Program-made: the position numbers and the translations under genes
From: Yuukianura sp. NJ FZ-2021
Lineage: Eukaryota
Assembly: GCA_046563655.1 (NCBI GenBank)
Contig: CM102290.1
Coordinates: 8,494,001-8,558,000 of the forward strand
Direction of reading: 5' to 3'
Length of the DNA: 64,000 nt
The notes under the pieces: generated by a model
Told to the model about the DNA's origin: nothing
What the model saw: the letters and a program-made list of their open reading frames with translations, nothing else
The model's database searches: none
Shown here: piece after piece, positions 10,912 to 28,920 of the stretch
Position numbering within the stretch: the stretch's first letter is position 1
Layout of the letters: each line of letters begins with the position of its first letter

Positions 10912-12036
10912 TCAAATCTCTTGACGATTTTCAAGGACTTCGGATTCCAATGCAGGCACTGCAGCCCGATTGTCGCCAACACTAATTCCTTGAACATTTT
11001 CGGGCAAGTAGTCTTTCCAACTTCGGAACAAATAGCGGGTAAATTTTCGTAATTGTCTAAATTTACAATAAGTTGCACCTTCAGCAGATTCCAGCTGCTG
11101 CGTCTGAATCAGGAATCCTTTTTCCTTGAACGTTTTCTCCAGTGTCTCACGCATCAGCGATTTTCTCGTCCTACGCTTGCGTTTACTCGAGTCCCTACAC
11201 GACACGACTGACGCCGAGTCATCTTCGGAAGACGAGGAGCAGTCTTCCGCTCGAGACGGAGAGTGGATAGGCGAAGTCAGTTCCGAAGGGTCTACAGGCT
11301 GGAAGCTTCCAGCGCTCTGAGGTACTGGAAACGGCTGAATCGCTGGCACTTGTGGTATTTTACAGCCGAGAAGATGACCTTGACCTTTGACTCCCCGACT
11401 CGGCTGTTTGTCTGAATAAAACCGAAAGTTCCCGCCAGAGTCAACACTGAGCATTTTCTTTTCCTGGAGCGTTGGTTTCACGCCTCCGGTAAATTTGAAC
11501 TTGCAGATACTCACTTCTGACGGTGGGGGAGGGGGGTGGGGCGGTGGGTGTGAGCCCAACTTGTCCAGCAATTTCTTCGTACGCTTTCTGGAGCGTGGGG
11601 GTGGGGCAAGTGGCTTTGGCCTGACTAGAACTGAATCACTGCTGGTGGTAGAGGGGTGTCTTTTGTCACGTAAACAGAGGTTGAGGGGTTCTTCCGGGGG
11701 GAGTGCGGGGTCAGGGGTCACCACCCCCGGATCAGACATCACCGGAGAGGTGTCATGACCTTGAACTAGAGTCGTGTTGGGGTGATTGACGTAGGTCAGG
11801 GGGAAGGAGATTCCATAGTTTTTGGATATGAGGTGGCAAATGTCAGCTTTCTTGGGCTTCCGGCCGCGCCGTGGCCTTGTGTCAAATGTCATTTCGCCCA
11901 TGTACGGCAAGTTGTTCATGAGGGTTCCGGTGGCTGGAAGTCCACACTTGTCGCCTTCGAGTCCATGACGCTTCTGACGACTTCCACTGTCACTGGAGTG
12001 ATCCAGCCGCCGCCCGGCTGAACTACCCGTGGCCAT
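10912..12036 (-). CDS. Uncharacterised protein, probably nuclear (374 aa; true start may be Met40 at 11919)
   Basis: Uninterrupted 374-codon GC-richer ORF in AT-rich DNA; basic PRRGRKPKK motif, EPLNL motif, NLS-like KRKRRTRK, ordered C-terminal block ATYCKFRQLRKFTRYLFRSWKDYLP; upstream splice acceptor (tttcaattttcag) near 12426. Confidence 0.75.
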   Translation of the reverse strand: MATGSSAGRRLDHSSDSGSRQKRHGLEGDKCGLPATGTLMNNLPYMGEMTFDTRPRRGRKPKKADICHLISKNYGISFPLTYVNHPNTTLVQGHDTSPVMSDPGVVTPDPALPPEEPLNLCLRDKRHPSTTSSDSVLVRPKPLAPPPRSRKRTKKLLDKLGSHPPPHPPPPPSEVSICKFKFTGGVKPTLQEKKMLSVDSGGNFRFYSDKQPSRGVKGQGHLLGCKIPQVPAIQPFPVPQSAGSFQPVDPSELTSPIHSPSRAEDCSSSSEDDSASVVSCRDSSKRKRRTRKSLMRETLEKTFKEKGFLIQTQQLESAEGATYCKFRQLRKFTRYLFRSWKDYLPENVQGISVGDNRAAVPALESEVLENRQEI

Positions 12037-14047
12037 AGGGCGCTGAATCCATCTTGACCTTTGACCTTTAGTCTACTGCTAATACTGGACGCTTCGGCTT
12101 CTGGCAGCTTCTCTACTCCGCCGTGTCTTCATGTCGACTTCAGTCGAGAAACAAAAGACGGGAATGGCAGTGGAAGGTGAAATTCGCCTGAATTCGTCCA
12201 AGCTCAAACAGGGTTTGTCAATCTCTTCATGCAAAATGTTGGGTGGGTTGTTGGGTTTCATATGAGAAAGGGGTGAATCGAAAAAGAGGAGGGTGTAGTT
12301 GTAGAACGTTTTTTAGTAGTTGCTTAAGAAACCACTAAAATTTTGAAGACTTAAACAGACTTATGAGTAAACCGCATTGACCCATTTCATTAACCCGGAA
12401 ATCCCGAAGGGGTATATTCACAATTCTGAAAATTGAAACAGTTGTAGTTACTAACTCAAAGACTAAATTCTACTTTTTTGAATTTTTTTTGCGTATGCAA
12501 AAACCCATACATTTTAAGCCATTAACCCTCCGGGGTTTAAGCCTTGACCCCGCCAAACCCTGGCGGAGAAGAGGTGAAAGAAATCTCGAGTGAATTTCTT
12601 TTCATTATATTTTTGGGCCTCCACTTCACCAAAATTTCTGCACCTCATCCCTGATCTTCTTTTTCGAAAAAATGCCGATTCGAATTATATTGCAAAAAAG
12701 TGGAGTTCCAAAAATAGATTTTCTCAAAAACCGAAACGTTTTTTCGCTTTTCAAATACAAAGGGAAAAAAGGCCCGGTTTTTCTTCAAAAAAAAATACCA
12801 CAAAAAATTTTGCAAATGCAAACATATCACTGGTCCAACTTTTGCGTAGTGTTCAAAATTAGTCTATTTTGAGCACTACACACTTTTGAAAGAAAATCTG
12901 AAAAACTTTTTTTTACAAGTGCCAAATATGGACTAGATCCAAAATTCGCTTTGAAACACTGTGACTTCGGATCTATTTTCAGGTTTTCGTTCCAAATTCA
13001 AACCGAAAAACGTGTCGGAAAATTTTCAGACCAAAATTTATTTCGGAATAAAAATTCTTGATCAAAACATTTCCGCTTTCGTCAACTTCTTTACCAAAAA
13101 AATTCGACGAGGCAATTTAAAGGTATTTTTCTTTTTCTTCAAATTTTAGCTTTGATTATTTTGATTCAAAAATTCAAAATCTTGCTTCTTTGTGTGATGC
13201 AGAGCAAACTCACTACTTGATGCAAAAACTCGATGATTGATGCAAAAATTTGGCGCCTGAATTCAAGCATCTAAAATGCTGCATCTTTGCAAAGTAAAAA
13301 AAAACACAAAACCAAAGAAAAAAAACTTTTTTTTTTGGCTTTTCATAACTTTCTCTTACACCAATTTTATTTCATCGGTAAGATTTTCAATTGAACAGAA
13401 AATAGAGCAAGGTTTGAACAAGTTTTTTTGAAACCTTCCGTAAATATGACATAAACCAGTGCCACCGAGCAAAGGTTATTTACAACACACACGCTTTCTT
13501 GGAAGGACGCCTGTTCTCTTTTCCGCTTTTACATTTCTCAAGTTCTTCCCTTATTTGAACATAGTACATAAGGGAATATTAGAACTAAGGAAGACTATAT
13601 ATATAACGAAAAAAAAAACATAAATAGATTCAACTCTGACTCTCATAAATAAATAAAAATAAAAGCAGCCAATTACAATTTGGAAAACAAACAACAAGTT
13701 TTGAACAAAAGCCATTTTAAAATGAGAGGGAACCGTTATGTTTTAAGCCAATAACATTTTAGAACTTTTTCTGGAAAAAAGTTATTCCATTATTTCCAAC
13801 ATTTGTGCAAAAACAGGCACGAAACAAAATTAATTGTACCAAGAGAAAAAGTTCACTCGGGTAGGAAGTATGCTATAGAATTGTCAAGTGATTGGGGAAG
13901 GATTATAGGGAAATTAATTGGTTGGGAATTGTAAAGCATTTGAATTAATTGACAGTTAGAAATCTTCAATGTTAGTTCAACTATTTTGAGTGACAACTGA
14001 TGAAGTTAAGAGGAAGCAGAAAAAGGTGTTCACGGTTTAGCTCATTT

Positions 14048-17000
14048 TTAGCGACTGCTCGCAGTCGACCAGTCTTCATTTTTGACTTCCTTCTCGGGCG
14101 GAGCCCAAATGTCGCTTACGAATGGATTGAATCCAAGTCCAGCCTGTTTCAAGAAACAAACCTTTTAAGTTTTCATATTCCCGACAAAAAAAAAACTGTA
14201 ATGTAAACTTATTTCATGTCTACCTCAATCTCCCGTTGATTTTGTAGTCCAATTCCGTTTCCAGAGTTGTTGCGTAGTGGATCCGGGCGTGTTACAGCCA
14301 AGTTAGTAGCAGGACGGGGTGTTGCAGTGTCCGATGAGAATTCCTGTGACCAGTAAAAGTTCGAACGACTCTGTGGTGGTGGATTTTGCCAAATGTCAGA
14401 CATTGAGCGTCCCTCGCGTCCGTTAGTGTTTCCCAGTCCATCAAAATCGGCTCGGTCAAATGGCGAAGAGCGGGTTGTTGGCAATTGGTTAGACCATCCG
14501 TTTCCAGTTGATGCCAAATTATCCGAGTTTGGCATAAATCCAGGAGGGGAAGTATTTCGAACGCCTTGTTCCAAACGACTCTGGTAAAACGATGTTCCCG
14601 GCCAGTGGTCTAAACATAGAAATAATATTAAAAATTCATACCACTAAAAGTAGCGTACCCTAGATAGCATCAGAATACACAAAAAATCTTACTGTCCATA
14701 GAAGAGTGGTATGACGGGAGAGCAGAGTTGTCCGACAAACCATTCAAATGTCCACGAGAAGAACCAGTAGAAGCGGATGTGAGCGTCGCAGTGTTACCGC
14801 CACTTTGAGTATTTCGTCCATATTGAGATTGTGAGCCAGTACTAGGGAGCCGATCATAAGAATTCATGTGCCAAAGTGTCGAGAGCAAGTCAGCAGGAAG
14901 AGCCGAGCTAAAATTGCATAGTTCGTTGTTAGAGCTAGGTGGAGTAGTGGAAGAGGGCGGTCGTCCGAACGGCGGAATGCTTGAAGTTGATGACGAGGAC
15001 GGATACAATTCCATTGAAGAACGAGAAGGACCATTCGAGTTGATCCTACCATCCGAATTCCGAGTTGGTTCCCAAGGTCCACTAAATCCAAGATTCGATG
15101 AGTGGTAAGCCGGTGGTTGGTTGGAAGTCATCGTCATTGCCAACGTAGTGAAAACTCCATTTACAAAGCTTCCAGTCGACGTAGCCGCGGAAGTTGATGG
15201 GGTTTGACGCGGCTGGCCGATTACTCCTGGACGACGTACAGTATTAGTATTGTTGCTTCCTGTAGCTCCACTTTGAATGCCATTTTTGTAGACGTTCCTT
15301 TGATGTTGTTGTTGATGAATTGACGGCTCGATACCTCCGTTCTGATTTCCAAACTGTTGAGAGTAAAAGGGTGGTGGCCGCATAATTGCATTCGGAATTG
15401 CACTGTAGCCCGGTGGTGGAGATGTGTACATTTGAGTGGAACCATAAAGTTCATGTCCCGATCCGGATGAAGCTCTTCGTTGCAAAAATCCATCTTGTAG
15501 TCCACCATCTTGAGACAGGCGTGGCGTTCCAGATCGCGAAGGAAAATCCACTGGAGATCCGCTGCCTAAAAGCATAAAGTTGTCAATTATAAAACACATT
15601 AGTGCTTTTTGTTCAAGTTGTTTGCCCGGTGAACGATTACTTACCATGACTTCCAGAACTCGAAGATCCACTCAACTGTTTCTGTTTGAAAGTTCCCGCT
15701 TTCTTAGTTTCAATGTTGTTATTGTTTATAGACGTGGAAGAAGTCAGTGGTTGCTTCGTTGTCTGGCGATTACCGTTGCTTACTGTAGTTGGAGAGAAAG
15801 TATTTCTAGTCAAACTGGAGTTTTTCAAATCCAACAGTTTTGGAGCCTCGGCAGTAGTTTTGAAATTTTCAACGTGTGAAAATGTGGAAGTCACGCCTTG
15901 ATTTTTCTGTTTCTTTGAAACCTGCTTCTCCTTGCGTTGCACCTTGTTTGAAGCCTTTGCTACTTCCACAGTTTCGGTAGTAGTCGTTGCTGATAAATCT
16001 ACTGGTGAAGGAGTTGTTTCTGGGGTATCCAAATGTTGTTCATCAGTTACAGGAGAAGTAGTTGACGGCCGAGATTGAACTTCTGCAGAGTCAGATGGCT
16101 CTTCCGACTTAGCTTTCGTAATAGGTTGCGTGGGCGTTTTTGGTTTGAGAATCTGACCCCTCCCCTTCCGTTTTCCAATTACTTCAGTATACTTCTTGGT
16201 TTCTGGAAGGACAGGCGTGCTTGATTCAGCAGTATGCCCAGGTTCCTTTTCTTCTACTTTGATCCATTTGGCTGTTGTAGCCGTACTCGTACTGTCTCCG
16301 CTAGCATTAAGTTCTGAAAGATACGCCGCAGTCTTTGAGTGGTGATTGTTCTTTTTCCTATTCCTGAGACCAATGGGTTGGTATGTGTCAGGACGAGTCT
16401 GTGTTTGAGTTTGCGCAGTAGTCGCAGTCGGTGCAGTGGTTGGAGCCGGTGGTGTTGAGAAACTCACAGGAAGAGTAGTCGATGGTGGTGGGCTTCGTTG
16501 AGGCGGAGTTTGACTTGCGTTACTCGGTTTAATTTTAGCAGCTAGTGGAGCTGGAGTGGCAGGTTGCGGTGATTGAACGTTTAGTTCTTGCTGGCTTCGT
16601 TTAAATCGATTGTCCACTCTTTCGTAAACCTCCCTTAGGTCAAACTTGATCTTATTTTCATCTTGTCCAGACAAATCTAAAGAAATTTACTCCTCACTTC
16701 AGTACAATCTTCTTTTCAAGTGACAACGAAAGCAAAAAGGACGAATACTTTGTAATTACCTTGAGCAGGTCGTACACGCACAGTGGACAGGATTGCTTGA
16801 GACACAATATGATTTGCATCGAAGTAGGCAAAGCACGATGCAGCCACGAATCCACTGAAGACGACAATCATAAGAATGTACTTGAGCGATTGTTCCCACG
16901 AGGGTCGTGTGATAATAGTCGAACAAGTGTCAAGCATGGCACTAGGAATCATGGCAATGAGTGTATAGTTGTAGCACTGCAAACCAAATATAAGTTTGAA

Positions 17001-20000
17001 TTTAATAAACATAACATGATGCATTAGCTAGGAAAGCTAAGGAATAAGAATAATTTACCACTCCATTAGAATCCAGAAGTCGCAGAGAACGAACCATTCG
17101 TGACATTGTAAAATCCGGCGTGTAGGCAATATCTATTGAATGGGTTTCGTTTGGTTGAAGTGTAAAGGCATTACAGTTCAAAATTCGGAATCCGAACCCT
17201 TCACACGATTCACCGGCGGATAATGTCCAGAAGCCAGGCCAGTACCCTTGTGGTGGATAAATCTCAATGACGTCAATGTTCAGCGGGATGTCACCAACAT
17301 TTCGAGCCAGAAATGATCGCCGAACTGTTAGCTGAGGTGGTAAGTACTTGCTCGCCGATGCTTCTACGAAAAAATGTAGAAAACAAGCAACCAGTAATCA
17401 GCTGTTCCAGCTAGTATATTGCATTGAATTGAATATCTAAAAAAAATATTGGAAGATTCGTTCTAACATTAAGCTAAATGAAAGTAGCCAACTCACGTTC
17501 ACATCCTTGAAGTAGTTTTTCAGTTATCTGAAACAACAGGGAAGATCCAGGAGTTCCACTTCCCAAAGTCAACAAGCCAGTGCCCGCACGTCCCTTCACC
17601 CACATTGTCTCAACTCCGGTCAAGTTGTTCCTAAAAACATTAAAGTTTTTGGTTGCACTTGATTCAATTTACGCAATACGGTTACATTACAAGGTAAAAA
17701 TAAGCTTAACTAGTAACCCAAAGTGTGACATTAGACAATCCATAACACAATACCTGATTATAATCTGAGTTGACGCTACTTGTTTTGATATCGGTTTGAA
17801 GCGACAGCGTAAGTAGAACTTAGCCGAAGGCGGAATCACAAATGACACACCAACTCTGGGTTTCGTCTCCATAAAATCCCCAACGATTGACCGTTGTACT
17901 TCCGTAAATATTCCAGACTTCTCAGTCGACTGACTGGTATCCGATGCTAGCCCGTTCAAAGAGAATACTGAAAACAATTACAACGTTATTCTATCGCATC
18001 ATGAAAATTTCCGAGTTGCTACCTCTTAATTACCAAGTATTCGAAATTAACGTTGTTATGCAGTGTGGCTTACCTAGCGCTCCTTCAGTGATATTCCCTC
18101 CTACACCGTTTCCATGAACATACTGTAACCAGTTCGGTCCATACTCCGTTCCCATCAGAGCGTGCACAAACAACGGTGTACTTGTGGGGTTATGAACCGG
18201 TACATCAATAAAAGTTTCATTTCCAATAGCCGTCAACGGAAATACGACAGCCTTTGATCCGGTGATCCTCGGCCACATGTAATTGACCTTCGTTGGTATC
18301 TTGAACCCCTTGGCAGCTCCCGTCTCCACCCAAAGTGTCATATTTGACACTAGAAACAGAATAATGGCGGTTACAACGATTATCTTAACGATTACCGGCA
18401 CTTTAATCCTCTTCTTCTTAAGTCTCCTTAGCCTGGGCATCCTTTCTACCGTTACTTCCTTCATTGTTACACTAAAGACTAAAGTTCAATTGTTCTTAAT
18501 CAGACTATCAAAAACTAAAACTGACGATTGTTGACTGTTCAAATCCCGATTAACTCTTTAGCTGTCACTTTGACAAAGTTCCAAACTGGAATGAAGGTAT
18601 TTTTACCACCAAAGAACAGAACACAACAAAAAACGAACGAAATGCGGAATGAAGGAAAACGTTGCTGAACGAGTGAATTCAGTTTCAGACAAAGGAATTG
18701 CCGTTCTCCTTCGCCTCAACCCCTCTCCTACGCGCTTGTTCCCATTTTAGCCTTCTTACAGTCTCCTTCAACAGAGGGACACACTATACGTAAATTGGGT
18801 AAATGCTGATCATTGATTACTGTAATTGTACACTACTCTATAACACATTCTCAAATGAAATTATTGTTGAAAAAGAAAAACTAAAAGCTATAATCCGCAG
18901 TATTTGCAAACCGAAAGATAATAAAATTCAATGAACTAACATAACGTTCTGTTCTCGACGAAGAGCAGCCGAGTGAAAACAAGAACAGTTATAAAACTGA
19001 TATGTAGAAGTTAAGAATCAATTGGATTAGTAAATTGGACTTACGATTGAGTTCTTTAACGTCATCAAAACGATTTTGTAGTTTCTTCAAAATGTTCCAA
19101 TCCACTTCGGCACTGTCCCAGTTGATATCACTCGCTCCAACCCAGTCTTTCCCCACTGAAAAATAAATTCAGCAAGTTACATTATGTATACAAACATAAC
19201 ATAACACATTTACACTCATTCTTTGTACTGTACAAGCATAAAACAATATCAACTAATTCCATAGTATTCTTAGTTAGTTTGTATGACAAGATGGCGAAGG
19301 CTGTTGAAAAGAACAGAGTAAATCAGTCATCCAAAGAAAACATGAAATTCAATCCATTTTCAAATTCAAAAGAGTCCTGCATATACAAAGGTCAAAAATC
19401 GGTCGAAGTAAACTTGGGCCCCCCGCCTGTCCCCACCCGTTCAAATTTTCGCGCTGCTTCAATTGTCCCCACCCATTGTCCCCACCTGGTGGGGACAAAT
19501 GTCCCCACTTGGTGGGGACAGATCTGTACCCACCAGCCGTACACCGAGTCCCTCTAGCGGCTGAATTGGAACTAGCAAATTCGAGCTGGCAACGTTGTAG
19601 CATTGCTCCGTTGTACCCACTCAGGGCAGATGTAATCAACATAGCGAAATTCAATAAGTCAAACCTACTGACGTAATCAGTATTGCGTGCTTTACCAAAC
19701 CTAACGCCGCGCCTTCGGCGCGGGAAAATATAACAGGATTTACCAAATCAAAAAGGAAAAAACGTTGCCAGCTTGAATTCAAAGGTTACTGTATTGCCGC
19801 TAGGTGGACACACTGCTTTTGGTTGTGGTGGGGACAAATGTATCCATCCGGTGGGGACACTGGGTGGGTACAATGGAGGCAGCGCGAAAATTTGAACGGG
19901 TGGGGACAGGCGGGGGGCCCAAGTTTACTTCAACCCAAAAATCAACATTTAAACTCCACTTGTCACCTTTGTCAAAAGAATCATGGTGACCCATTGACCT

Positions 20001-23000
20001 CGTACTTTGGTATCGGTTACGTAGTTACATATTACATATCACATGTAACACACAAATCAGGACATACAGTAACGGACCAACACAATCGAATGAAATCAAG
20101 TCATCAGAAGATATCTAGCTGATTGCTGATTACTATAATTTCGGTTACGATTTACATCAAAGTCAAAGCTTATAGAAATGACTCACTTGGTGAATCTAGT
20201 AAAAATCCAGAATAGCATTCCTGTCCACAGAGTTGTTTAGGATCAAAATGAACTTTTCCAACAAGAGTTTTGCGATGTGGAAGAATATCCAAGTGTTGCA
20301 TTGACATGGACGTAAACCACAGCGGAACTCCTTCTGGACGAGCAACAATATTCCTCAAACCAATCGTTTGGTTGAAGGTTGAGCTCAAGTGTAGTTTTTC
20401 TATTGAGATCTTTCCCTGTAAAACAAACAAAAAAAAACATATCAATAACTACCAAAACCATTCTTTAAAGAATTGACAAAAGGAAAACTTGACCTTTTGA
20501 CACTTACCGGAAACGCTTTGTCAAACACAACCATATCACTCTGAACGGATCCTTTGGACACGGCCACGCTAAAACGCACACGCAGCGTTTGGTTATGATC
20601 TGTAGTCACAAACGACTCTCCAGTAAACACGCCTTCCACCGTTGGATCCTTGACTTCAACAGAGAAAACAGCCATATGACCCGGTTGAAGAAACAACTAC
20701 AACAAGAAGTCAGTTTGTTACAATTCAACTTCACTATTCGAAAATTTCAAACCAGTTGAACTTTGACCTTGACCTACCGATTTCTTCAGCCCATCGAAGT
20801 TTTCTTGCATTTTGGCGAGATCTTCCTTCCTTCCTTGTCTCATACCCACCAGATCAACCTGTGCCCATGTAATGTTTGAACCCCATGACTTCAGCCTCAC
20901 TTCCACCGGATTCAAATTCCCCACTGAAAAGTATTCAATATGAGTCGAATAAAGTTCCACCCTCCCAAACTTCAAGTGACTCCCTTCCAAAGTGTGCTAA
21001 AATTAAAAAAAAAAGTTATCTTTCATTCAAAATTCATCAAAAAGTTTCAGTCATTTCCATTCTTGTAACCCTACCGCTTGTAACTTTCCATCGTAGCAAC
21101 TAATTGGTAACTTCTTGGCAGTGACGTTGCTCTTGAGAGTAAGAAATATTTCTGATTTGGGATCACACAGTTCTGATGGATTCTTGACCTTGATCCGGAA
21201 GAGGTCAACTTGTTCTCCAGAAGGAACTATGATCTGAGACGAACCATTTCCACTGTTGAAGTTTGTCAATTTCAACACCTCTGGATGACTGAGAGTCACT
21301 TCGTAAATGGCAACAGCAGTTGGAAAAGTATTCCGAATACTGAAATTTTCAAACAAGTATTACAGTTCATTGTCAAAATTCCTCCAAATTTTATTTTTAT
21401 CCCCATCACCTCATCGTTTTCCAAAATTACCTAAAATTTCGAGTAGGATAACGGCTCGTTTTGACAAAAAAGCCAAGCGAAGAACTGTTGTATTCCAGCT
21501 CTCCGCTGAGTACGACTGCCCGAAATGGAATAGTAATTGCATCACCGTGATCGCTACAAATCTCGACAAAGCCTGTCGTGTCTTTCGGGTTAGAAACTTC
21601 TGACGCTATTCAAACAAAAAAATCAAATCAAAACCTTGATTTTCAAAATCCATTCTTGACCCTTAAAAACACATTTTTCTTAAAGTTGTCCAACTTACGG
21701 TCAAAAGTTACAAGAGCCACGACTGTTGAGGCGGTACTGTCTTGCTCAATAGAGATTGGACGAAACTCTATCTTTACAGCTCTGTTCGGGTTTCCTTTGA
21801 CCGTCACGGACTACAACAGCAAATAAAGATATTATATAAATAAAACACAAATATTAATACCATTACATTTATATGTGAAGTATTATGCATTTTTCTTTTA
21901 CCTGCACATTCACTGTGAGTTGTTGAGCATTGATGAGTGACAAGGACAGTGTCTTCGGCTTATCCGTCTTCACCAAAAGGCCAAAATCCAGTGACTCTTG
22001 TGGTGAGTAGATTCCAGGAGACGAGCTCACTTGAACTTCCACTGGAACTAGTAGGTACTCTGACCCAGTTCTTGTACTATTCACTCGAATTCTATATCAT
22101 ATAAAAAGAATTCATATCACATTCAATTAGGTATAATCTTGTTTCTTTAAGGTGCGTTTATGGTTATTGCTACAAAATTACTTGATGTAACCAGTATGAT
22201 TTCCTTCGGCCTTGCCCTGGAACGTTCCCTTCATAACCGGTTTCGTCTGAAATGGTTCGATGGCCCATGCTCCCTCCTCTCCCCCTTCCAGGGGTTCGGG
22301 CAGAGACAGGCGGAAGTCAGAGCCACTGGACAAGATTTCTACGACTTGAATTCTACTGCCATGCGGATTGTGCATAGTGATCAGCGGCTCATAACTTCCG
22401 TTCACCGGAATTCGAGCTCCGACTAAAGGTTTCAGTCTATATGGATTCGGCAGTCCTATTCCTTGTACCTTCACCAAAAATACAAAACATTAATTAATTG
22501 AGTTGCACAAGAAACGTTTCAATTAAGTTCAGTCGAAAACTTTCGACTCACATAGTATTTAAATAGCCCTTTAGAGGTATGGATGTAGAGGTTGGAGTCT
22601 ACCAAACCCTCGGATCGGCTCAAGAACACAATTTCAAACGTTGTATTACTGCCGGGACTTATTACCTAAAATCATAACAAAATCATGAGTAGTCCCACTT
22701 TGTTGGTGGTGGCGGTCATAAATCATTCCAATTTTGTGTGCATTTTCCAACCTTATCCGCAAAGAATGAAGAATGGAAGTGGACAGTACTGCCCGAGATA
22801 GAGATCAGTTTCACACTTTCGTCCGTCAATTTGTTATCCACTCTAACGACTCCTAGACTTGGTATTCCCACAGTACTGCAACAAAAACACATAACATAAG
22901 TGCTTTTTAAATCGCATCTTAACTCTTCATTTCAATTAAGAACGGAAGCTCTTAAGATAGAATTAGCACAGGATTTTACCTCTCTTTGAAATCCAAAGAT

Positions 23001-25333
23001 AGTGGATGGAAGGATAGGATTTCTGATCCATCTGGTACAATCCGCTCACTCAATTCACTCTCATCTCCTACTAATCTAAAAACAACAAAGACAACAAAAT
23101 GTCACATTAGAATTTCTAAAATCAAAATTTCATACAAAAAATGGCACAGTATTGGCATAATTTTATTTTCAGAAACACAAGACACAAGCCATTAAAGACA
23201 TAACATTGTTTCCAAATTCTGAGAGAAAAACATCACGCGTAAACTTCAAAAAACGTTGAGATAGAATCCGCACCAGCGTAAACAAACGTCTATTCCGCAT
23301 CGAAGTTCTTGCTAGATTCGGTTAGTAAGGATTTCCGATTTTTAAAAACGTGCGAAATTTTGAAGATTGCTTGACTTTTATATACAGGAAAAGTTCATTT
23401 ACATTTCATTATTTCCTAAAAACTTCCGCTTTTACTTCTAGCATCTGTACTAATTGCGTTCTCCATCATCATCAAAACACTCCGCATTCTATTTTTTCAG
23501 TTTTTATCAAAATTCGGATCAAAATCAAAGTGTAGAAAACTCTTCTCACACATAAAAATAAGAACTCTGATGCCTTACTTGCTCGTGGAAAATGACTGGC
23601 CAAGAATAAGTCTTAGATCATCCTTCTCGTATGTCAATTCTGTAAAAGAACAAAAAAAAATGCTTAGAATCATAATTTTTTTTTCATTCCTTGACTCGTG
23701 ACCTCTGAAAGGTCATCCATTGGGAGTCTTGTAACTCTCGTGACTCTTGAATAACGTCATGCAGAGAGTAGCATAAATTGTATAATCATGGATTCAACAT
23801 AACCATTTTAGTATGTTTCATAATAACCTAGAAAACTTCTCAAATTCAAACACAAAACGAGACATAAAAGTGCTCTTCACAGCACTTTTAATTTTTTTAC
23901 GAGTTCATTGGAATAAGACACCAAACAATACTTTCGTTTGTTCCGACGATGCAAAACTGAATGCAGTGTCGGAACAAACATCTATCGTTTGATCCTTGAT
24001 TTTCCTAGAATGAAATTAGGAGTTACAAGTTCTAGAAATCAATTGTTATGCTTTGTGTTTCAAACAATTAACGCAGTGTAACAATAAATAACATCGCAAA
24101 ACTAATAATAGCTGCTTATGGTTATGTCTGGAAGTTCCAATCGTAAGTAGTAAAGTAAGTTTTGACACGTACACAAAAGAGACGCATGTCTTTATAGTCT
24201 AATTTTGTTAAGCAAAAACAATTTTGTTTCTGAGAACATGAACTATTTTGGATAATATTTTGGTTTTTTAGTCACGTTTGCACGCTTATAACAAAAAAAA
24301 ACATAACCATAAACAGTCTTAAAAATTTCTTTTTCAATAGTACGCATCAAAATTCAATTCTTACACATTGACTTTGTCATGTTTGACAAGACATATCTCC
24401 ATTAAGGTCAAGGGTCATCTCCGCGGGATAAACTTTTCGAAAAAAGACATTTTGAAATCTTTTGCATCAAGATCGACTAGGTTTACAGATAGTATTTCTG
24501 AATAGAATGGAAGTCAAAGAGTGAGGGCTAAATGAATTGAACATTGAAATTTATTAGGACTACATATTTTGTCGCACTTCACACGCGTCTGTGAAATCAT
24601 TGTTGCCCTTAGTCAGCAAATAAGCGCTCTAACGTTCACTCCTTTATGATAAAAACAACGTTGTTTTTAGGGAAACTGCGCAATTAAATAGTGGTATCAA
24701 ATAATCACCACATCACCATGATTTACTACCTACTGCAGGTATTAAATTCACGGAAAGTACACTGGCCGAGATAAGATTTAAATCTTGATTGATTTGAATC
24801 AATCAAAATCAAAACGCCTGAGGAACTCATAACTCGTTACATTAGTTTCCAGCTCTTAGTATTTTACATGTCCAGAAATTGAAACGATGAAGCAATGGAT
24901 ACCCAAATTTAGACTCGACAATGACATTGGACTGGAAACAATAACAATAACAGGGTCAATAATTCATGGTTAACTATTAACAACCAAGATTAGCAGACTT
25001 TAGATTAGAGATAGACGTTACACTTTTTGGTTTAGAGTTATCGGAGACAAGGATTGTCTTTCGTCTGTAGTCAACCGGCAAGTTCTGGACATAAATGGTC
25101 TGGATACATAAAGTGATGAGGAACGATTCGGGATTATTGGACGACGTTCTTGGAATAGTAAACTGTAGACGATTAGTTATTCCTTTATCAATTAATGATT
25201 GATATCGTTACCCAAGTGTTACTAATCATACTCTAAACATACCGGAAGTACGATGACGATGATCCACAGCGAGGCAACCGATATGGAGAAACAAGGCCAG
25301 AAGACATCTTGTCCAGAAGGTCATTTTGGGCAT
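14048..25333 (-). CDS. TMEM131: Transmembrane protein 131, multi-exon
   Basis: Signal-peptide exon MPKMTFWTRCLLALFLHIGCLA; TMEM131-type peptides ISISGSTVHFHSSFF, GLPNPYRLKPLVGARIPVNGSYEPLITMHNPH, IRNNLTGVE, CEGFGFRILNC, IAYTPDFTMSR; TM segment LKYILMIVVFSGFVAASCFAYFDA; long S/T/P-rich tail ending FNPFVSDIWAPP...SSR*. Confidence 0.93.
19401..19935. mobile_element. Non-autonomous TIR element (MITE, 535 bp) in a TMEM131 intron; Merlin-like by termini and TSD
   Basis: ~100-bp imperfect terminal inverted repeats (GGTCGAAGTAAACTTGGGCCCCCCGCC... / ...GGCGGGGGGCCCAAGTTTACTTCAACC); perfect 8-bp TSD CAAAAATC at 19393-19400 and 19936-19943; no transposase ORF. Superfamily assignment is inference. Confidence 0.88.
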
Positions 25334-27376
25334 GGATTGCTTCCTAGTATTAGTGGTTCTTGTTGTTGTTCTCCATTCTTGCTCTTCTGACCTGTAGAGT
25401 TGGATTTCAGCCTTGCAGTAGCATGGTTCATTTCCCCTCTTGTCGCAAACGTTCATGCCCAGTTGGTTGTTGTGTCCAAATGACCTTGTCATTTTTTCTG
25501 GAACGGTTCTCGTGTAATTTATTATGGAAACCCAGTCAAGTTCATGTGCCGAACAAAGTTTTTTCAGTTCAATATTCAATTTGAGTAGGGTAAGTCTCGG
25601 TGCTGTGTCTATGTTTCGTTGAGTTTCTTTCCTTCGAAGGTGGTGTCCAAGTCGTCGTGTCAGCTGATTGATGATCTAGGAACCTTCACTAATTAATTAT
25701 TGTCTTGGAGGGTAATCAGTGCACTAACTTGTGTGAGTGACGATGAGAACAAACCACACACCTAACACAACTGCACTGACAGGAAAACCTTACCTTCACA
25801 ACTGCACTGTTTTCACTCCATGCTAAACTCGCTCCCGTAGTACAAAGCACTAATGACCAATTCCTCCGCACCAAGTGCCGCACCAATAAATCGTCATTTT
25901 ATTTAATTTTCTCTTGTTTCTTTAATTTGTATTTTATTAATTTTTTTTTTACTTCAATTAGGTATAAACCAAAACCTTTTGTTGGCTGTAACGTGAAATA
26001 AATTTAACGTTGCATTTAAAACCTAATTTAAAACGGAACGCTTCCGTTCGAGGTTCGACTCACTACTTATTCAATGTAGCTTTTTGAAAGTTATTTTTTA
26101 GTCAACATAATTATAATATAAGATGAACGTAGTTATGTATATTAACCATTTCCTTTCGTTAACCACTTTGCGATAAATTCGTTATTGATTGATCAGCATG
26201 CCAGGGTTTTGAATTGTAAATAGTTATGACAATTAACATTCGAATCGCGTTTACTAGTTTCAAAGCAGTGATTAAAACATTAATTAGTGGTGTCTTTGTT
26301 ATTGTTCCCTGTTATTCAAAAAAAGGTTTATAACAATATTATTTCATAGTAAAAAAATATTTCCGCACCGGGAGTGCAGATATGTGGTAGATCAGAGGCG
26401 AGAATTTTGTGTACAATTGTGTGGAATGGTACGCGGACCGTGTTCGAACAAGGTTATCCCGAACATGAACTCCGTCTGTGAAAGGCGAGAGATTTGTTTC
26501 TTACAAAAAAAAAACGATACTGCAAAATTAGTAAGTAAAATATTGTACGAAACTTCATTGAATTGTATTGGAGGAATTGTACGGAGAAACAAACTACTGA
26601 AAAGACATTGGCTAGATTGTATGCCTGGTGTGAAAAATATAGTAATTTTTGGCACGGAATTTGATACTAATCGTGAACGCTTTTAGCAACATTATGAACA
26701 GGAAAGCGGTACATAATATTATTTTCTTTATAGGTAAAGGACATCTGTAAGTGACATAATTAGGGTATGTATTACATAATTAACTTCTTTGCCTTACAAA
26801 AGTTCAACTGTATTAGTATGTATCCACCACTCCCGAGCCCGCCCGCGCGCGCGTTGCGTTCTTTGTGTTTTTGTATTTGCAAGCCCTATCAGCTGTTTTG
26901 TCTGACTCGTATCTCGTCCTCCAAAAATCTTAAGACGACGAGAATTTAGCACCGGGACCGGGACGGGAGACGATTAACAATTAAGCTACTAGATAACTTT
27001 GCGGTGAATGCTGTTGCTGTTCCTGCTATCAGCTAACCTCCAATTGGTATGAAACGCTTATTTGTTTAATTTTTAGGTACCGTCAACAGAAAAATCGTTT
27101 TATTAAAGTAACCTAATTGGCAATTGAAAATTTATTACTGTTTACAGGTGTCTGAATTGACAACAGTATACTCATGGTCATATGCCGCTGAATCGTTTGA
27201 TGTTCGCTTTGCTTATTTTTATGCTGAGGAAATATCGTGATTTTTGGGCATCCAGATAATTCAGTATGCAGTATCACTTTCACTTCTACTAACAGAACAC
27301 AGACAGTAATTTACCTGGGATGTGATGTGAAGATGTGACTTAATAAACTAATTAGACTGTCGTGTGTATTTCAGAA

Positions 27377-28920
27377 ATGTCGGCATTTTCCTACCGGGTT
27401 ATTCGCTTCACTGGAGAACGAGTTTTGAGATTCGCACCGCTACTAACCAGCTGCAGTCCTCCTTTAACTTTACGTGTCACAGCTTACAGACCGATTTCGG
27501 ACAGCTCCAGACATACCAATGCGAACGCTGATTTTGACGAAGAAGCCAATGCTGAATTCGAGAAGGAAAGCAAAGCTCGGGAAAACCGCATAAGGTTTTT
27601 GAAAAAGGCATTCTCTACAGCTCTCTTTGGAACTACATTTGGTCTGATTTACTTGGCTCGACGAAGAAGACGAGCTGAAATGTCACAGAATTTGGAAGGT
27701 TGTGTTCGTTTTGTAGATGAAGACTATGAACCCGGTCATTCCGAGTTCTACCGAGTACCATCTCCAAAGACTGGCAAACCAACGTATGTCTTCCCTTCTG
27801 GAATGGTCAAGTCAGGCACACTTCGTCAACTCAAGCAATTCAAAGTTCGGCCCACCGACGTCGTCGTAGCTAGTTTCCCGAAGGCTGGTGAGGAATCTCA
27901 TTCCTGTCAGTTTATTTTGATAAACTAAAACTAACTTGTTTGTTTTAGGAACTACTTGGGTCCAGGAAATTGCTTGGTTGATCATGCACAATCTGGACTT
28001 CCAGAAAGCTTCTGAAAGAGTACTTGAGAGTCGGAGTCCTTACTTGGAGTACCTGTATCCTGGCATTCACTCTGTTACCCACATGGAGTCTCCGCGACTA
28101 ATGAAAACGCATGTGCCGTTTGACCTCCTTCCGTCCGATTTCATCAACAAGGCCAAAGTGATTTACGTTAGACGTAATCCCAAGGATACTGTTGTGTCCT
28201 ACTACCACTTTGCTAAAATGCTCGCCATGTCCAACTACAAAGGAAATTTCGAAGACTTTCTTTCTACGTTCATCAAAGACAAAGGTATATTCCAAAATTT
28301 TTGTATGCCTCAACCATTTCGAATAACATAGCCTACTAATCAATTGCATCTTCAACTTTGACATTTCTTTGGCATTCCAGTTCCTTACGGTCCGTACTTT
28401 GATCACATCGAAAGTTATGCTGAGCAGCAGGATCATCCCAATTTACTCATGCTCTCATACGAAGAACTCAAGCGTGATCCCGCCGAAGCTATTCGGGTAA
28501 CAAACTTGAACAAAACTTAAAAAACTTTTAAAACAAAAACCATGTTACAACCATAAACTCAGACTTTTGAAGAATCCTAACTTCATCTAGCCTATTGCTT
28601 TGCTTCTATTTCAGAAAATCGGAGTCTTCCTGGAAAGACCACTGACTGAAGAAGACGTAGAAGCGTTAGTGAAACACACAAGTTTTCAGGCCATGTCTGA
28701 GAACACATCCGTCAATTACTCCCACTGGGATGCCATTGGGATCCGGAAGAAAGACGGAACGCAGTTCTTTCGTAAAGGTCAAGTTGGTGACTGGCGAAAT
28801 TACTTTACGGAGAAGACAAACAGCGAATTTGACTCTTGGGTTCAATCCAAAAACAAAGGAAATGTTCCCTTTGAGTATGATTTGCTCCAACCACAAGAGG
28901 ATCATGGTCTGATGAACTAA
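27377..28920 (+). CDS. Cytosolic-family (SULT) sulfotransferase with ~110-aa N-terminal extension; exons ~27377-27887, 27949-28284, 28381-28496, 28615-28920
   Basis: 5'-PSB motif SFPKAGTTW across intron 1, RLMKTH, 3'-PB motif RNPKDTVVSYYHF, C-terminal FRKGQVGDWRNYFT; intron phases are consistent. Confidence 0.93.

Follow-up and report, generated by a model that had tools for sequence, protein, structure and literature searches.

The window, meaning the whole 64,000-nt stretch of DNA analysed here, lies on contig C8 of a springtail genome of 98.7 Mb in 22 contigs, and its minus strand carries TMEM131, the single copy of this gene in the genome (one match only). The gene model comprises 23 coding exons (14048-25333) encoding 1,931 residues, with all introns of the GT-AG type and no internal stops. 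When the exons were compared with Pfam, PF24495 (E 2.7e-32) and PF24501 (E 2.4e-21) scored above cut-off, and on single exons PF12371 (E 1e-5) and, weakly, PF24499 (E 6.7e-4) scored below it. Over its first 1,130 residues the model is 62% identical to the protein of Allacma fusca, 60% to that of Orchesella dallaii and 56% to that of Folsomia candida, and its identity to non-springtail proteins is at most 34%. Hydropathy peaks only at residues 5 and 1098, corresponding to a signal peptide encoded by exon 1 (25243-25333), which resembles the Allacma and Folsomia N-termini, and to a single transmembrane helix encoded by the exon at 16760-16976. The last exon (14048-14143) encodes a conserved C-terminal GFNPF-x-S-x-IW that matches the Allacma, Folsomia and Orchesella C-termini. 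By its sequence, the gene is a clear TMEM131 orthologue with a signal peptide, a luminal Ig/PapD-like array, one transmembrane helix and the conserved C-terminal motif.

The last exon is easily overlooked, as exon 22 continues for four codons into an 80-nt intron before reaching a stop, and retention of that intron could give a form without the C-terminal motif. The null models and intron statistics reported below, the genome-graft null apart, used the 21 introns of the gene model without this exon. TMEM131 stands head to head with a sulfotransferase gene (PF00685, E 4.6e-34; 27356-28331, plus strand), and just downstream of it, on the minus strand, a 386-codon open frame (10912-12072) contains a short Arg/Lys-rich motif and has no Pfam match. 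The Orchesella cincta annotation divides TMEM131 into two adjacent proteins (ODN00128.1 and ODN00127.1; P0062 and P0063), which, set against the one 1,949-residue protein of O. dallaii, is likely a split annotation.

Intron 14 and its open 3' end

Intron 14 (18350-19044, minus strand; GTAAGT...CTAG) is 695 nt long and occurs once in the genome. It separates exon 14 (19045-19155), which belongs to the full-length form only, from exon 15 (18074-18349), which encodes the last two strands of an Ig-like domain followed by the start of the Pfam domain Ig_TMEM131L_4. Since exon 14 spliced at 18350 yields a junction that aligns without gaps with Allacma, Folsomia and Orchesella TMEM131, the full-length form uses this position as its acceptor. 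Among the first 21 introns 17 measure 78-133 nt, the long ones being introns 1, 2, 13 and 14. The neighbouring intron 13 owes its length to a MITE-like element of ~545 nt (19394-19940) with terminal inverted repeats of ~110 nt and 151 genome matches, ~20 of them near full length at 86-98% identity, whereas intron 14 is long without a detectable repeat. A transposon origin of the peptide described below was rejected, the intron matching only itself in a genome search that can miss copies. Searches of the intron (L045) for non-coding RNA gave no Rfam and no tRNA match.

An earlier note on this DNA had drawn attention to the end of intron 14 as stop-free, in frame with the next exon and opening with an ATG at 18464, and as encoding a basic cluster followed by ~18 hydrophobic residues. 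Both observations hold. The frame runs through the acceptor into 18349-18074, and the 115 nt at 18350-18464 (minus strand), continuous with exon 15, form the coding part of a candidate internal first exon with a lead of 39 residues, the frame being open for 46 codons ahead of exon 15. The basic cluster (residues 11-21; 18402-18434) contains eight Lys/Arg among 11 residues, including RXR and RR, and is predicted to be cytosolic. A second in-frame ATG (Met9; 18438-18440) adjoins it, and a start at 18440 would leave the same anchor with an N-terminus eight residues shorter. The hydrophobic segment (residues 22-39; 18348-18401) overlaps the branch point region and the 3' splice site. Its mean Kyte-Doolittle hydropathy, taken over 19 residues from residue 22, is 2.78, compared with 2.27 for the gene's own transmembrane helix, and the 15 residues ahead of the segment carry a net charge of +8, the 15 behind it a net charge of 0. 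Type II signal anchors have 17-25 hydrophobic residues near the N-terminus and a greater positive charge before than after them, and residues 22-39 show this arrangement. The segment is a predicted signal anchor, and it may be cleaved after Ser40 as a signal peptide.

T-rich intron tails often translate as hydrophobic sequence, and null models were therefore needed. Leads were scored by hydropathy and net charge at four cuts: loose (1.6/+2), 2.0/+4, relaxed (2.5/+5) and observed (2.78/+8). Tails with real acceptor ends were simulated from a second-order Markov model of the long introns of this gene, 150,000 in each of two runs. ATG leads of 20 or more codons arose in 15,658 of 150,000 tails (~10%), and the four cuts were passed by 1,572, 69, 1 and 0 tails, respectively; the run that kept the last 25 nt of intron 14 unchanged gave 4,769, 242, 6 and 0. 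When intron 14 was shuffled 20,000 times with dinucleotides preserved, six shuffles passed 2.0/+4, one passed 2.5/+5 and none reached the observed values. In the third null 925,484 real genomic positions were grafted onto the acceptor, a design that preserves local patchiness and has real coding sequence among its material; it gave 6,418, 313, 5 (from 2 loci) and 0 passes at the same four cuts. A loose basic-plus-hydrophobic look is common, at 0.7-3% across the Markov and graft nulls, and the observed combination was reached in no null.

Real start codons gave a similar picture. We surveyed 14,474 ATGs on both strands of 464 kb, made up of 400 kb of C8 (40 evenly spaced pieces) and the window, and only the two ATGs of this frame combined a hydropathy of at least 2.5 with a net charge of at least +5. 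One further locus passed 2.0/+4 (L041, about position 1822, plus strand); its peptide looks like a normal N-terminus for a type II membrane protein. A smaller empirical scan found no basic-plus-hydrophobic lead at 152 acceptor-like sites before coding-like frames (94 of them with non-coding sequence upstream), a sample too small to bound the rate. Because the cuts were set after the peptide had been seen, the null figures overstate the case somewhat. The lead peptide is beyond chance and a statistically unusual sequence feature.

The rival explanation that survives best is that intron 14 is a plain intron, in which purine-rich sequence stands ahead of the T-rich 3' splice region and the two together read as basic-then-hydrophobic by accident. 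It is favoured by the frequency of simulated leads and of the loose look, by hydrophobic-looking ATG leads of 12-16 residues in introns 1, 18 and 20 of the same gene, and by the ~10 cases expected per genome at 2.0/+4 on our own assumption of 20,000-25,000 long introns per genome. On the same assumption, however, only 0.1-1 cases are expected at 2.5/+5, few of which would also lie before the transmembrane helix of a secretory gene, and the observed values lie beyond every null. The composition also counts against chance, because a pyrimidine tract would give Phe and Leu, whereas the segment contains six Val, five Ile, two Leu and one Phe. The last 115 nt of the intron have a GC content of 0.41, the highest among the 21 introns (0.20-0.37 in the other 20), and T occupies codon position 1 in 1 of 39 codons and position 2 in 20 of 38 (18350-18464). 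Read-through intron tails of the relatives P0001, P0002, P0019 and P0036 are rich in Phe, Leu and Tyr and have no basic cluster. Taking these points together, we regard a chance origin as unlikely, though far from negligible.

Measures of coding use were mixed. The synonymous codon score of the tail (4.46) exceeds that of 97% of 516 intron windows and of 76% of coding windows, and three-base periodicity is pronounced (p=1.4e-5) in a test that is partly circular; the whole-codon coding score, which is weak for a peptide so biased, did not speak for coding use and stands at the 3rd percentile among coding windows. With leave-one-out scoring the acceptor at 18350 is the second weakest of 21, which fits dual use. 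The start codon at 18464 has the context AACA-ATG, in agreement with the fly start consensus. It is preceded by a candidate 5' untranslated region of 278 nt without ATG (18465-18742, minus strand), a length matched by 1.5% of 14,575 ATG-to-ATG gaps in a genome sample, and the last ATG upstream of it in the intron lies at 18745.

Relatives, promoter signals and other transcripts

A metagenome scan found three loci with the orthologous region (L002, L003 and L004). The nearest relative found, L002, is 79-80% identical in exon 15 protein and has a complete orthologous intron of 641 nt. This intron resembles intron 14 neither in DNA (best local score 23, shuffle mean 23.4) nor in protein (best score 34, null median 34), and the latter result ruled out a conserved cassette or micro-exon in the two long introns. 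At silent sites L002 is saturated, with 11 of 37 fourfold sites identical, and it is therefore too distant to refute the peptide. The L002 intron has an in-frame ATG lead of 12 residues with a short hydrophobic core, no basic cluster, the context AAAA-ATG and 248 ATG-free nucleotides before it; this combination of lead, gap and context was matched by 56 of 20,000 shuffles, and as the cut was chosen after the fact it is a hint only. Neither this lead nor the start of P0001 was accepted as supporting evidence, as prokaryotic gene calling will place a start in whatever intron tail it meets, and leads of this kind are frequent. Two other features of the L002 intron were observed: an A-rich then T-rich run at 408-550, which ends at a strong AG (541-542) 113 nt above the real acceptor, and a ~100-nt hairpin at 160-262, with weak miRNA-family matches far below gathering scores, which is perhaps a small inverted-repeat element. 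The run gives basic-then-hydrophobic strings in two frames, both out of frame with the exon and without ATG, and in this respect speaks for chance.

The orthologous introns of L003 and L004 (92 and 76 nt) have no ATG lead, P0003 reads through a short intron at the junction, and P0005 has no intron there. In all, the peptide is absent from five of five relatives with the intron in view, the closest of which (L002) is saturated at silent sites and none of which is a congener; this, too, is in line with chance. Residues 1-21 were covered by none of 46 phmmer matches, and an isoform starting at the 14/15 junction was found in none of the 13 members of four springtail clusters (Allacma, Folsomia and Orchesella). 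With the 130-residue frame as query, none of 253 longer homologue candidates scored; of 10 candidates near its length one scored, which was the L002 exon product. The ESM Atlas gave no match at 0.9 or above (best 0.79). Since relatives and annotated isoforms lack the peptide, the feature is non-ancestral in springtails. If real, it probably arose in the lineage in which intron 14 lengthened and is lineage-restricted.

Core promoters were sought with the consensus strings TCAKTY for the initiator (Inr) and those for DPE, TATAAA and DRE. The two TCATTC hexamers to which the earlier note had pointed, at 18652-18647 and 18594-18589 on the minus strand, are present, and further TCAKTY matches lie in the intron at 19000, 18858 and 18524. 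Three of the five matches are below the last upstream ATG (18652-18647, 18594-18589 and 18524-18519) and are weak candidate start sites. Five matches on the sense strand compare with 1.9 expected (1,000 dinucleotide shuffles, p=0.034), and 2.4% of 1,302 genomic 700-nt windows contain at least five. A DPE at +28 accompanies none of the five, and intron 14 has neither TATAAA nor DRE. The Inr matches exceed chance by a narrow margin only, and the promoter evidence is thin. The intron thus shows neither an Inr/DPE nor a TATA core promoter, and an Inr-only or broad promoter may be used; our literature search on springtail core promoters found no springtail data. The earlier note had proposed an internal promoter producing an isoform that lacks the N-terminal luminal half but regains targeting to the endoplasmic reticulum (ER). 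Its coding side is upheld, with a peptide far in the tail of three nulls and a charge polarity of the N-in/C-out type, and its promoter side is weak (Inr p ~0.04, no DPE or TATA). The extent of the loss it described needs correcting, as residues 1-755 would be missing, about two thirds of the luminal part (which ends near residue 1097) and not half.

A transcript could also begin further upstream, with a first exon, coding or non-coding, in intron 14 that uses the donor GTAAGA at 18759, or one in intron 13, spliced to the AG at 18505 or 18472; alternatively, a 60-nt cassette exon might explain the length of the intron. The score of this donor, 2.2, falls among those of true donors (1.1-8.0), and the two AGs score 2.3 and 1.1, so that a spliced 5' untranslated region is possible instead of a continuous one. 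The candidate cassette exon (18760-18819, minus strand) is open and in frame, but its splice sites are weak (acceptor -0.2), it has no counterpart in L002, and orthologous proteins have no insert at the 14/15 junction. We consider this group of explanations very unlikely; its upstream-exon version yields the same protein product as an unspliced internal start. Least probable of all is an alternative 3' splice site by which exon 14 would join the AG at 18479, in frame and followed by an open frame from 18485, adding 43 residues with a membrane segment to full-length TMEM131, or would join out-of-frame AGs to make a decay target, as the AG at 18479 scores -4.3, under all 20 training acceptors, and the insertion would place the basic cluster in the lumen and flip the downstream domains, contrary to the positive-inside rule.

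Predicted short form of TMEM131

We consider it fairly probable that a lineage-restricted internal start gives rise to a two-pass TMEM131 of 1,215 residues, without the collagen-binding PapD-like domains and with the TRAPPC8-binding tail, analogous to the short form of TANGO1 (TANGO1S); the frame, its composition, its improbability by chance and the gene model are shown here, and promoter, transcript, topology and function are what we infer. The exons encoding PF12371 and PF24495 lie upstream of the new start and the last exon downstream of it. Judged from the sequence, a short form that lacks the collagen-binding end is probably a second product of TMEM131. A promoter in intron 14 would start transcripts ~60-190 nt above the ATG at 18464; these would pass the acceptor at 18350 unspliced and later be spliced as in the full-length message, and translation would begin at 18464 or 18440. 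The 1,215-residue product has two hydrophobic peaks, at residues 22 and 382. Its basic N-terminus would be cytosolic, and residues 22-39, as a type II signal anchor or a long signal peptide, would send ~340 residues into the ER lumen, namely a leftover hairpin of 25 residues and, after it, domains Ig_4 and Ig_5. Transfer would then be stopped by the normal helix (residue 382), leaving a cytosolic tail of ~810 residues with the TRAPPC8-binding end. By the positive-inside rule the N-terminus would face the cytosol and the shared part would keep its topology, with the Ig domains luminal and the tail cytosolic. Such a start would probably have originated by extension of exon 15 into the lengthened intron.

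The N-terminal half of Orchesella TMEM131 (P0062) was modelled with AlphaFold (40 sequences, mean pLDDT 82.6), and the model, combined with VIA-align ranges and Pfam, gave a chain of Ig/ASH/PapD-like domains. Foldseek returned only look-alikes of the Ig array, with no solved TMEM131 among the matches listed. One domain of the model spans 587-737 (against 1wcq: Z 9.9, rmsd 2.4, 97 residues aligned), and the 14/15 junction falls at 713/714. Because the new start thus lies inside an Ig-like domain, two orphan strands would be left. On this model the short form is predicted to lack five domains entirely and a sixth for the most part, both PapD-like domains included, and the leftover strands would serve as a linker before Ig_4 and Ig_5, an untidy arrangement that would be tolerable if the hairpin acts as a spacer. 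Arginine-based ER signals of type II proteins have the form RXR or RR and are described as failing when near the membrane (in passages of PMC2799409). The RXR and RR of the predicted short-form N-terminus resemble such signals, but they would lie close to the membrane.

TMEM131 is thought to act through its two ends, a luminal PapD-like end for procollagen and a cytosolic tail for TRAPPC8. In passages of PMC7015688, the PapD-like domain is reported to bind the collagen C-propeptide, and its deletion to abolish rescue; the last 140 residues of human TMEM131 are reported to bind TRAPPC8. With 0% rescue (n=20) by a PapD-less transgene in the worm, as given in the same source, the short form could not replace full-length TMEM131 in collagen recruitment. 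With the PapD-like domains lost and the TRAPPC8-binding tail retained, it could therefore be expected to recruit TRAPP III but not procollagen. Because the collagen-recruiting domains are missing, we propose that at ER exit sites it would serve TRAPP III as an adaptor independent of cargo, or else would compete with full-length TMEM131, in the manner of TANGO1S alongside TANGO1L. A bolder version is that a new signal anchor, arising within a 3' splice region, made a two-pass, PapD-less TRAPP III adaptor and so split cargo recruitment from vesicle tethering, and that L002 may start differently in the same long intron, the promoter being kept and the peptide turning over; we regard this version as tentative and on the whole doubtful.

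That an internal first exon can bring a targeting signal of its own is already known. Within the same family, Maharzi and colleagues are said to have described, in 2013, a long and a short isoform of human TMEM131L, the short one reportedly lacking the signal peptide and being intracellular. That isoform is likewise shortened at the N-terminus, but it reportedly regains no topogenic signal. Among the matches listed for TMEM131, tmem-131 and TMEM131L, titles and abstract openings mention no signal-anchored short TMEM131, and in the main text of Zhang et al. 2020 (PMC7015688), on TMEM131, tmem-131 and CG8370, the word 'isoform' is absent.

The closer parallel is TANGO1S, the short form of MIA3/TANGO1, which has 785 residues compared with 1,907 and is reported to start in upstream sequence of its own, 'exon 6a' (passages of PMC8524724). 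It is described as an integral membrane protein with a unique N-terminus, without the luminal collagen-binding domain and with the cytosolic machinery-binding tail (passages of PMC5007089), and as needed for collagen export (PMC5007089, PMC8524724). Fly and worm, according to passages of PMC11841073, seem to make only long TANGO1 forms. Like TANGO1S, the predicted form is a short version of an ER collagen-export factor with a unique in-frame N-terminus (here 39 residues ahead of an open 1,215-residue product) that loses the cargo domain and keeps the cytosolic tail, whose binding is predicted. TANGO1S belongs to an unrelated family and has almost no luminal part and no defined signal peptide, whereas the TMEM131 short form would retain two Ig-like domains and have two membrane anchors; TANGO1S has been shown at the protein level in mammals, whereas the TMEM131 form is a prediction, seemingly confined to one springtail lineage, and its weight is limited accordingly. 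If true, it would be a clean case of an intron splice region doubling as membrane-anchor code, and a natural, correctly oriented tail-only form of TMEM131 would be a counterpart of TANGO1S from an unrelated family and would make it straightforward to test for a cargo-independent role of TMEM131 at ER exit sites.
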